From the IMG/VR virus record IMGVR_UViG_2718218104_000010: a stretch of DNA of 51,671 bases; one strand, written 5' to 3'. The DNA comes from a virus (Duplodnaviria > Heunggongvirae > Uroviricota > Caudoviricetes). The position numbers are program-made. This document shows, in pieces, positions 30,001 to 33,000 of this stretch. Position 1 is the stretch's first letter. Each line of letters opens with the position of its first letter.

Positions 30001-33000
30001 CGGGAGCATCCGTATACAGATAAATCCCCAGCCCGAACTGATTGTTGGTCAGTGCGCCTGACAGGCGGAACTTACAGTTCAGTCTGCCGCCCTGTGTCAG
30101 CAGGGTAATTGCGTCATCCACCGGATGCGTCAGGGACCAGGTTTTATTGCTCTGCCTGGTGATCTTAAATACACCATCTGACAACTGAATTCCGCCATCC
30201 TTAATGCTCCAGCCCTGCGCAGCAGCCTCTCCGGCTGCCGGCAGCAGGGAGATTGTGCGAACGGACGTATCTGCAGACGGACCCGATGGCGTGTTGCCGC
30301 CGGGCGAGGGTTTGATTTCCGGTGCCTTACCACTGATGAAGGCGGAGGTGCGCCCGGCTGCGTTCAGAATAGCGGTTGCCAGACGATCCGGAATAATGCT
30401 CCTGCGCGCCCATGAACTGAAATGTGTCGGGCGGTTTGATGATACCTGGTTTCCATTCGTTCTCGATGCCGCACCGTAATATCCTGATGCCGGAATATCC
30501 GGATCTTCTGCCGGCGCGTTAGTGGCGGTATTGACGCCGTTACCGTCTGTCATGAAGGGCACAAAATAAACGCCCTCACTCTCCCTGTTTTTATACCCGC
30601 CGTACACGGTGTCGTACTGGGTAGCGTATGTATTTTTCCAGTAATACGTCGTATCACCACAAATCCACGGCACATCTGCAGCACTGCCACCATGGCACTG
30701 CGCGTTAAACACGGAGAGGTCAGCACGAAACTGTGTCAGCATGGCTGTAAACAGCGCAGGTTGCTGTGCGTGGGTGGCGGCGCTCATGTCAAACTCTCCC
30801 TGCATCCAGCACACCGCCAGCAACACATTTTTCGGGTTCTTCTGTAATGCAGCTTTAGTGCGCGCAATCAGGTCCTGATATAACGGTTTACCCACACCCC
30901 AGCGTGCCGAATCCTGGCTGGCCCCCGTGTCCGCACTGAATGTCCCCTCAGCGCCCTGGGTGAATGCAGAACCACCACGACAGCATGGTACCAGCAGGAT
31001 CCCCGCGTTATTCGGGATATACGGAAGCAGTTTTTTGGCAATATGTAAGCCCTGGCCGACACAGCCGTACTGCCCTTTGCTCAGGTCTGCCTTCGGATGA
31101 TTCAGCGTACTCATATCCTGCACATCATGCAGGCAGTGGTCGGCCGGAATGATGTCGTTATACGTACAACTCTCTCCACCCGGAGTTACCGTGCTGCGGC
31201 GCGCCAGCTGTTTAATGCGCGGATCCGGAGCATCGTAAGAATCCGGTAACGGAAGCCCTTCACCGTAGGCCATGCCGTTGGACTGTCCGGCCAGTACGAT
31301 GACGTAGTACCAATCCGGCTCAGATGAAGGGCCGACCTGTGGCTCTCCTTCAATAGCCACCGCCTGCATCAGTGTGTACGGCGTAATGGCAACCGGTCCG
31401 CCGTATGGCTGCCAGCCCTCTTTCAGTTTGTGTGTCAGCTTTTCCGCAAGGTCTGACGGCGACGCCGCCCTGACAACATCATAGTGTTTAAATGCCATGA
31501 ATCCTCCCGGCCGGGATAATATTGTGAGTAAAATGAGGAGCGGGCTGAAGTCCGGAAGTTACAGGACAATGGCAGAAGAGAGACAACAGCCCGCAATACG
31601 AAAAAGGCCGCGCTATTGCGCAGAGTGATTACTGTCGGATATTATTCGCCAGCTGAAATATTACTTCACGTTTTGTTGTTTATTCCTTGCCGCCCGCGTC
31701 TCCCTGCGCGGGCTTTTTTTGTCCATAAGAAAGCCCCTCCGGAGAGGGGCTGGAGAGTGGCGCTATGTGCCATTGCATGGTGCCGGGTGCCTCCCGGTGA
31801 ATTCAGTACCAGCACCTGAATCCGCGATTATCCCATATACCTACTCGCTGATTGCCCCTCCGCACAGGGGGATTCACCATGCCAGTTTCTTTTAACAAAC
31901 TCCCCGCAAACCAGACAACAGTCAACCGCCTGAATTGTGAGACATTTAAAAAAAAGGCCCGCAAAAGCGAGCCAGGGAAAATAAGTGTGGCGCGTTGTAC
32001 TGGATTCGAACCAGTGACCGATTGCTTAGAAGGCAATTGCTCTGTCCGGCTGAGCTAACAACGCAGGATACAGATAATGGACCGCCTTCGGGGACCCGAA
32101 CTCCGCGCAACCAGCTTCGAAAGCTGGCGCTCTTTCCTGATGAGCTAATGGCGGTATGTGATGGTGGCCCTTGCTGGATTTGAACCAGCGACCTGGCGAT
32201 TATGAGTCGCTCGCTCTCACCACTGAGCTAAAGGGCTGGGTCAAAAAATAATAATCAGATGAAAATCAATAATCAAGCCCTTGCCTGGATACATATCTGT
32301 CTGGCGGGAAGCCATAATAGCGGTGAAATACAGAAATAAAGTAGGACCAGCTTGAATAACCGCATTTTTCTGCTACAGCCTGTCCATATCCATGCCGGGA
32401 ACATAACATATTGACAGCAACACGCATCCGCTCTTCCAGCAACAAGCGACTGAACATGTGCCCTTCATTTTTCAGTTTTATCTTTAACAAACTCTCACTC
32501 ATATGCAGGCGTAACGCAATCGCACCAAGCGTCCAGCTTGCTGATATATCTGTCTGAATTATCGCCCTGACTTTGGCACTTATACTGGATAAACATCCAC
32601 TTAAAAATAATAATATCCGTTCATCTGATTCAAACAGCGACAGGCATGCCATCATAAGAAACATATCCGTGGTATCTCCGGAAAATCTCTGGCTGGTAAT
32701 TAAAGCCTCAGCCAACGCAGGGTTGTTGGGTTCCAGTGACAGATAAAGCGGAACGTCAGTCAGATGAGTTCTTGTCAGCTTATGCTGAATTTCCAGATAT
32801 TGACTTACTATGGAATGGTTTATATCGAAAATTTTAACTTTGCCATAATGCATAAGGAAAAGCGCCCTGATGCATTTGGTGGCCAGAACGACTGAGCCGG
32901 GCTTAAGTGACAACGTATCCTTTTCAAGAAAAATATTAATTGGGGAGCAAACCATGATAACTGAACAGACAACAACCATTATAATTTTACTTTCATTAGC

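Follow-up and report, generated by a model that had tools for sequence, protein, structure and literature searches.

Stx phages and related lambdoid phages can carry transfer RNA (tRNA) genes downstream of the antiterminator gene Q, in the leader of the late operon. In phage 933W (NC_000924) the order is Q, pR'/tR', pT, ileZ, argN, argO, a terminator, the Shiga toxin genes stx2AB, STnc100, AsxR (antisense) and an esterase gene. VT2-Sakai, also known as prophage Sp5 (NC_000902), carries the same tRNA genes as ileZ2-argN2-argO2. Other lambdoid phages (SfI, Sf6, ST64T and phage 21) have tRNA-Asn/Thr downstream of Q, in the same late-operon-leader position with different tRNA species. The tRNAs downstream of Q in lambdoid phages have been proposed to supplement the decoding of rare codons (PMC3636060). 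Here we analyze the ileZ-argN-argO cluster of IMG/VR virus record IMGVR_UViG_2718218104_000010, a stretch of 51,671 nucleotides (nt) that we call the window. We focus on its middle gene, argN1, which is probably a redundant tRNA-Arg(UCG) gene that is decaying under relaxed selection in a defective prophage.

Identity of the tRNA cluster

In the 51.7-kb window ARAGORN predicts three tRNA genes and no others; all three lie on the minus strand. An earlier note, made by reading the window, had placed three minus-strand tRNAs with anticodons CAU, UCG and UCU at 31988-32237, and the coordinates obtained here are the same. All three genes also exceed the gathering score (29 bits) of RF00005, the tRNA model of Rfam:

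32162-32237, minus strand: ileZ1, tRNA(CAU) of the tRNA-Ile2 (lysidine) type (ARAGORN; Rfam 66.3 bits)
32078-32154, minus strand: argN1, tRNA-Arg(UCG), a degenerate allele with A6·A67, A52·C62, G58 and U32 (ARAGORN; Rfam 42.9 bits)
31988-32064, minus strand: argO1, tRNA-Arg(UCU), fully canonical (ARAGORN; Rfam 70.1 bits)

The Rfam E-values over the whole window (2.4e-13 for argO, 7.4e-06 for argN and 2.6e-12 for ileZ) mean that none of the three is a chance match. Each gene encodes its 3' CCA, as E. coli tRNA genes do. The CAU tRNA is annotated as tRNA-Ile both by the Prokaryotic Genome Annotation Pipeline (PGAP) and in the Sakai genome; ARAGORN, which goes by the anticodon alone, labels it Met.

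Prophage Sp4 of E. coli O157:H7 Sakai contains the whole 400-nt cluster region without a single base change; RefSeq names the genes there ileZ1, argN1 and argO1 (ECs_R0045-R0047). The flanking gene order is that of Sp4 as well. At least one base differs from Sakai within 31001-33000, so that the window probably derives from a different O157 strain, such as PV15-279. With an 801-nt query we found 100% identity in the 15 O157-type genomes listed and 668 records with at least 99% identity; in 657 of 5426 complete E. coli genomes, matches span 80% or more of the query. The cluster also aligns base for base with those of 933W and VT2-Sakai. It is the ileZ-argN-argO operon, the cluster named in the earlier note, in the copy of the defective, stx-less lambda-like prophage Sp4 of E. 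coli O157:H7, and it has been known for many years under the names ileZ/argN/argO in the GenBank record of 933W and ileZ1/argN1/argO1 in the Sakai record. We ruled out, as having a negligible probability, that the unusual middle gene reflects an error of sequencing or assembly or a fortuitous resemblance to a tRNA: the 801 nt are identical in the 15 independently completed genomes listed, at least 25 IMG/VR contigs carry the allele, the Rfam E-value is 7e-6, and argN1 has a strong tRNA match on either side within a conserved operon.

Compared with 933W and VT2-Sakai, the window has the same genes in the same order, on the same strand relative to Q, with the same anticodons and the same downstream terminator. 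The spacers are the same except for a 2-nt indel, and the same STnc100 and esterase modules follow. The identity to 933W is 75/76 bases for ileZ, 69/77 for argN and 76/77 for argO. The differences are that the window lacks stx2AB after argO, that three open reading frames (ORFs) lie between Q and the tRNAs, and that the 5' flank and promoter region are different. The earlier suggestion that the cluster occupies the Stx-phage position stands for its place downstream of Q and upstream of STnc100 and the esterase gene; the three intervening ORFs and the absence of stx are two departures from that picture. A 2-nt (AT/TA) indel between ileZ and argN varies among clusters and matches a polymorphism reported for clade 8 Stx2 phages, for which single-nucleotide polymorphisms in the "first tRNA-Arg" are also described (PMC2858043).

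Derived structural defects of argN1

The argN1 RNA reads CCGCCAU-UA-GCUC-AUCAGGAAA-GAGC-G-CCAGC-UUUCGAA-GCUGG-UUGCG-CGGAG-UUCGGGU-CCCCG-AAGGCGG-U-CCA. Direct reading and cmscan agree on two mismatches, A6·A67 in the acceptor stem and A52·C62 in the T stem, leaving 19 of the 21 cloverleaf pairs standard. In the T loop, UUCGGGU, the near-universal A58 is replaced by G58, and a conserved T-loop feature is missing; ileZ (UUCAAAU) and argO (UUCGAAU) have kept the conserved loop. The acceptor and T-stem mismatches and the atypical TTCGGGT loop, which had been noticed from the sequence beforehand, are thus confirmed.

The argN genes of 933W and VT2-Sakai have all seven acceptor pairs, a fully paired T stem (CGGGG/CCUCG), the T loop UUCGAGU and C32. 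Eight of the 77 bases of argN1 are different from those of 933W argN, among them the changes U67A, G52A, A58G and C32U. Three of the eight changes damage the structure and none is compensated. Because 933W argN is intact, and because ileZ and argO each differ from their 933W counterparts by just one base, the argN1 defects are derived; the comparison with 118 related clusters described below likewise shows that the mismatches are changes that arose on an otherwise canonical gene.

The covariance model gives a graded answer. The earlier note had held that its doubt about the middle tRNA would be overturned if covariance scores made all three tRNAs canonical or denied the middle one a tRNA fold. 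The scores do neither: all three genes pass, and argN1 falls short of intact argN alleles by about 10-15 bits. The Rfam scores of the argN classes described below are as follows:

Intact argN alleles: 52.7-58.4 bits
933W argN: 54.8 bits
argN with G58 only: 54.0 bits
argN with A67 only: 53.0 bits
Window-type argN: 42.9-43.4 bits
Arm-replaced and heavily mutated argN classes: below threshold, no match

In mechanistic terms, U67A would open the acceptor stem, G52A would open the T stem and A58G would remove the T54-A58 pair of the T loop, with C32U as a further change. Together these changes are predicted to cut the stability of the argN1 cloverleaf by about 8-11 kcal/mol and to favor a misfolded T arm. 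The likeliest outcome would be a tRNA that is poorly processed, unstable or poorly charged, in other words a hypomorph or a pseudogene in the making. We infer that the function of argN1 is lost or reduced.

argN across related clusters

To place these defects in a wider family, we used ileZ and argO as anchors to retrieve 120 related clusters from IMG/VR and compared alleles over 118 of them. The middle elements fall into 58 distinct sequences. About 46 loci have an argN with neither a stem mismatch nor a violated invariant position. The window-type allele, with or without U32, is present at about 26 loci (~22% of the clusters in the sample). In about 31 loci (roughly one quarter) the anticodon arm has been swapped for an unrelated 27-28-nt block (AGACGACACGATAACAGGGTTGTTGGTG), and neither ARAGORN nor Rfam calls a tRNA there. 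A few further copies are heavily mutated, and in all more than half of the argN copies in the sample are damaged or destroyed.

The arm-replaced copies (for instance L010, L039, L112 and E. coli CP178302.1, L133 7569-7714) keep the acceptor, D and T arms of argN and have the T loop GCGGGU. We also considered an integration scar, in which the attP of an inserted element would have taken the place of the 3' half of argN, an idea prompted by PMC10111431. This was rejected, as argO follows after the conserved 13-nt spacer and nothing is inserted.

Alleles with a single change exist for G58 alone, A67 alone and G52A alone. For instance, the argN of phage Nil3 (AM051322; L126 5722-5798) has G52A (A52·C62) alone of the three, keeps A58 and a normal acceptor stem, and is an intermediate between intact and window-type alleles. 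Since such alleles exist, the defects were acquired step by step on a canonical gene, by accumulation or by recombination. In the window-type class, sub-variants have gone further, with more pair breaks (G10U and G50A) or loss of the CCA end (C74U, giving UCA); none of these changes is compensatory.

The three genes differ strongly in diversity. Nucleotide diversity over the 118 clusters is 0.008 for ileZ, 0.038 for argO and 0.078 for argN (0.175 when the arm-replaced copies are included), so that argN is about ten times as diverse as ileZ; the longer spacer and the flanks reach 0.18-0.29. This contrast indicates that argN is much less constrained than ileZ and argO, yet not fully neutral. When the 38 distinct argN alleles were aligned, the cloverleaf was paired at 96% of cells, with many one-sided changes from G-C to G-U and with departures concentrated at 6:67 and 52:62 in the window-type class. 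We found no double-sided changes supporting the argN cloverleaf among the 38 alleles, which are about 94% identical, so that this test is uninformative in this regard; the one-sided G-C to G-U changes are frequent among intact alleles. The earlier proposal that the UCG tRNA may be a pseudo-tRNA or non-canonical thus gains support from derived, uncompensated mismatches and from the weak constraint on argN.

stx was found downstream of intact argN only, in 11 of 42 loci as opposed to 0 of 50 with a non-intact argN (Fisher p = 8e-5, in an IMG/VR sample whose loci are not phylogenetically independent). One may speculate that window-type argN is maintained in many stx-less prophages for a non-decoding role, such as a toxin decoy or a processing element, or, in a milder version, that selection retains intact argN only in active Stx phages. 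We regard this as a long shot. If the milder version were true, argN integrity would mark phage activity. One stx2-adjacent cluster (L021) has a structurally intact argN (~2136-2209, minus strand) with a UCU anticodon, through a change of G36 to U, and therefore bears two tRNA-Arg(UCU) genes.

Among GTDB species representatives, the ileZ-argN-argO cluster was found only in Escherichia. Three matches labelled as non-Escherichia metagenome-assembled genomes were set aside as likely contamination or, for L132, as unrelated tRNAs.

Predicted folding and the alternative T hairpin

We folded the argN alleles with ViennaRNA. For the window allele the cloverleaf has -20.0 kcal/mol and an alternative fold with a T hairpin has -25.4 kcal/mol; the canonical T stem has an ensemble probability of 0.008. 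Two intact alleles (L067 and L026) give -31.3 kcal/mol for the cloverleaf and 0.94-0.98 for the probability of the canonical T stem, and the 933W cloverleaf has -28.3 kcal/mol. These energies ignore tertiary contacts and base modifications, so we used only the contrast between alleles. In addition, the minimum-energy structures of argO, ileZ and 933W argN are not cloverleaves either, so functional tRNAs misfold in such predictions too; both points weaken the folding evidence for decay.

The alternative hairpin is formed by the pairs U54-A67, U55-A66, C56-G65, G57-C64 and G58-C63. This raises the idea that window-type argN is a remodelled tRNA-like RNA with a non-decoding role, in which the T arm has become a UUCGG-GUCC-CCGAA hairpin on a 5-bp acceptor stem. 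Such an RNA might serve as a decoy for tRNA-targeting nucleases or as an element for the processing or stability of the operon. Of the three derived changes, U67A and A58G contribute one pair each to the hairpin, ViennaRNA prefers the hairpin by 5.4 kcal/mol, and the window-type allele persists in many contexts. Moreover, positions 58 and 63 hold G-C in 15 alleles and A-U in 12 others, and double changes were more numerous than in any of the shuffles. As a sign of a selected hairpin, however, this covariation is unproven. Only three of the four combinations at 58/63 occur, a pattern that three linked haplotypes explain by linked mutation without selection, and the covariation tool itself warns that related sequences beat shuffles without any structure. 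The hairpin is present at 75% of cells only, and intact alleles lack it; pairings of this kind arise easily because UUCGAA is naturally palindromic; the mutations in sub-variants are too few to test whether the hairpin is protected; and no known function needs it. We therefore consider a remodelled RNA highly improbable.

Redundancy and codon demand

From its anticodon, ileZ (CAU, lysidine type) would read AUA, argO (UCU) would read AGA and AGG, and argN (UCG) would read CGA and CGG. These five codons are poorly read by E. coli and are often used by prophage and toxin genes. The three tRNAs differ in what they would add to the host. E. coli already reads CGA with tRNA-Arg(ICG) and CGG with tRNA-Arg(CCG), so that the decoding capacity of argN overlaps with that of host tRNAs; argO and ileZ duplicate the rare host species argU (UCU) and ileX (ileX/ileY being tRNA-Ile2). 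The UCG isoacceptor is thus redundant, unlike an extra tRNA-Ile2 or tRNA-Arg(UCU). E. coli is not known to have a chromosomal UCG isoacceptor. E. coli Arg tRNAs carry the discriminator A73 or G73, and the discriminator of argN is U73.

Redundancy also exists within the lysogen. At least six O157 genomes (e.g., NZ_CP022689.1, NZ_CP016755.1 and strain 86-24) hold both the window cluster and a 933W-type cluster beside stx2A in which argN is intact. Decay of argN1 would be tolerable because the host ICG and CCG tRNAs duplicate its decoding and because an intact argN co-resides in these genomes. The codon usage of stx2AB, with 36.6 AUA, 14.6 AGA, 4.9 CGA and 7.3 CGG per 1000 codons, fits the redundancy of UCG decoding.

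The prophage that carries argN1 is itself degraded. In Sp4 the repressor lacks a peptidase domain, Xis is probably non-functional, nu1 is disrupted by an insertion sequence (IS) and there are head defects; full function is predicted for Sp5 alone (PMC2669165). The window contains three IS3-family (IS629-type) copies, detected through their ALIL frameshift pseudoknots at 24127-24243 (plus strand), 29075-29191 (minus strand) and 38388-38504 (minus strand), which is consistent with a heavily IS-ridden, defective prophage.

A possible working but non-canonical tRNA

Several observations weigh against decay and for a working, merely non-canonical tRNA-Arg(UCG) in which A·A, A·C and G58 are tolerated and which still decodes CGA and CGG. 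Isolated mismatches are tolerated in various natural tRNAs. argN1 passes Rfam (42.9 against a gathering score of 29) and ARAGORN, and PGAP calls it a plain tRNA-Arg without a pseudogene flag. It retains U8, A14, G18, G19, U33 and the encoded CCA. The identity elements recognized by arginyl-tRNA synthetase are A20, C35 and G36 or U36, and argN1 has A20 (in the D loop AUCAGGAAA), C35 and G36. Single mismatches, or G58 by itself, occur in otherwise intact alleles, and each alone may be tolerated. The window-type allele has been recombined next to five or more distinct upstream flanks. It is therefore an old, widely distributed allele and no private lesion, and it could be neutral or even useful.

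There is also some demand for its codons. The coding sequences of Sp4 use CGG at 12.3 per 1000 codons, as compared with 6.6 in a host sample, and in pchA (27740-28054, plus strand), about 4 kb downstream of the tRNAs, CGA and CGG account for 9 of the 14 Arg codons. pchA encodes a regulator of the locus of enterocyte effacement and is identical to Sakai ECs_1091; it is rich in argN codons yet resides in a prophage whose argN is degenerate. Finally, a search of full-text literature found no study of argN expression, processing, charging or function.

Nevertheless, we judge a working tRNA, the strongest rival to decay, rather unlikely. Three independent structural changes have come together in one 77-nt gene beside nearly invariant neighbors, no compensatory change is seen, and the window-type lineage has gained further mutations that break pairs or destroy the CCA. 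The deficit in Rfam score and the near absence of the canonical T stem from the predicted ensemble point in the same direction. We therefore favor decay of a redundant gene as the probable explanation of argN1.

The flanking genes ileZ1 and argO1

The earlier note had described both flanking tRNAs as canonical. This is correct for argO1, in which cmscan reports no non-standard pair. argO1 is the commonest argO allele (54 of 118 clusters) and differs from 933W argO at 1 of 77 bases, at position 37. It does not hold for ileZ1, in which cmscan flags two non-standard pairs, A1·C72 and A27·C43. The second of these is common to all 12 ileZ variants in the 118-cluster sample. The first results from a G1-to-A change in the first base of the gene (window position 32237), which is found in 3 of 118 clusters, lowers the Rfam score of ileZ from 72.5 to 66.3 bits and is the only one of 76 bases at which ileZ1 differs from 933W ileZ. 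Together with the argN1 defects, A1·C72 means that two of the three tRNAs in the Sp4-type prophage bear derived structural lesions.

TilS recognizes the acceptor pairs C4-G69 and C5-G68 of CAU tRNA-Ile2. In ileZ1 the acceptor strands AGCCCUU and AAGGGCC give exactly these two pairs, and judged by its bases ileZ1 qualifies as a lysidine-type tRNA-Ile2.

Gene neighborhood and the empty stx slot

On the minus strand the genes are ordered DUF968, RusA, Q, CPBP/CAAX protease, a small ORF, an AraC-like gene, ileZ, argN, argO, STnc100, SASA esterase, IS629 and pchA. The features closest to the tRNAs are the following:

34570-34950, minus strand: antiterminator Q gene, start of the late operon (Pfam Phage_antitermQ, E = 8.7e-52; annotated antiterminator Q)
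32266-32979, minus strand: AraC-family helix-turn-helix gene, ending 28 nt upstream of ileZ (Pfam HTH_18 and HTH_AraC; counterpart of Sakai ECs_1087)
32248-32276, minus strand: sigma-70-like promoter match TTGATT-17-TATTAT, ending 11 nt before ileZ (consensus scan, a pattern match only)
31948-31973, minus strand: G+C-rich hairpin GGCUCGC-UUUU-GCGGGCC with a run of eight U behind it, resembling an intrinsic terminator, 15 nt past argO (consensus match)
31721-31911, minus strand: STnc100-family RNA element, directly after the tRNA terminator (Rfam STnc100, 138 bits)
29648-31498, minus strand: SASA-family carbohydrate esterase gene, the first late gene past the empty stx slot (Pfam DUF1737, SASA and DUF6645)

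933W has no gene at the position of the AraC-like gene upstream of ileZ. The promoter-like match holds the place of pT, the putative tRNA promoter annotated just upstream of ileZ in 933W, and the terminator-like sequence is identical to the one after argO in 933W, where the annotation gives it as a possible rho-independent terminator ahead of stx. From this anatomy, the cluster would form a unit of about 330 bp with its own promoter-like site and terminator-like hairpin, nested in the late transcription unit that depends on Q. It would be transcribed constitutively as well as after induction, and the transcript would then be cut into three CCA-ended tRNAs.

The stx slot, which stx2AB occupies in 933W, is the 76-nt interval 31912-31987 and is empty; there is no stx-sized ORF between argO and the esterase gene in the window. 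The window esterase is the counterpart of the 933W and Sp6 esterases, and for the homologue in Sp6 the annotation reads 9-O-acetyl-N-acetylneuraminic acid deacetylase. In other loci AgvB directly adjoins STnc100 as an antisense RNA, as AsxR does in 933W. Beside STnc100 in the window, AsxR and AgvB gave no Rfam match even at E up to 1. A plus-strand terminator-like hairpin at 31692-31713 followed by seven U (site 31690-31720) lies where 933W has AsxR, and possibly marks an undescribed or diverged antisense small RNA. The same prophage also has a sok antitoxin RNA of a hok/sok-type module (36962-37136, minus strand) and the small RNA DicF (47186-47237, plus strand).

Of the four Sakai prophages compared (Sp4, Sp5, Sp6 and Sp15), Sp4 and Sp5 carry the tRNA cluster. 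No tRNA was found between Q and stx1 or the esterase gene in Sp6 or in Sp15, the Stx1 prophage of Sakai. The cluster is therefore a variable module of the late-operon leader and is not fixed in Stx or lambdoid prophages.

Implications

The practical value of the finding is small, and what is new is mild: argN is more fragile across the family than ileZ and argO, and the ileZ copy of the window bears the G1A lesion. Annotation pipelines call argN1 a normal tRNA-Arg despite three uncompensated structural defects, and therefore counts of "extra tRNA genes" in enterohaemorrhagic E. coli genomes overstate the decoding capacity that is added. In Escherichia lambdoid prophages, argN has often suffered damage or destruction, whereas ileZ and argO hardly vary, which suggests that selection in this operon keeps the decoding of AUA and AGA/AGG, and not that of CGA/CGG.

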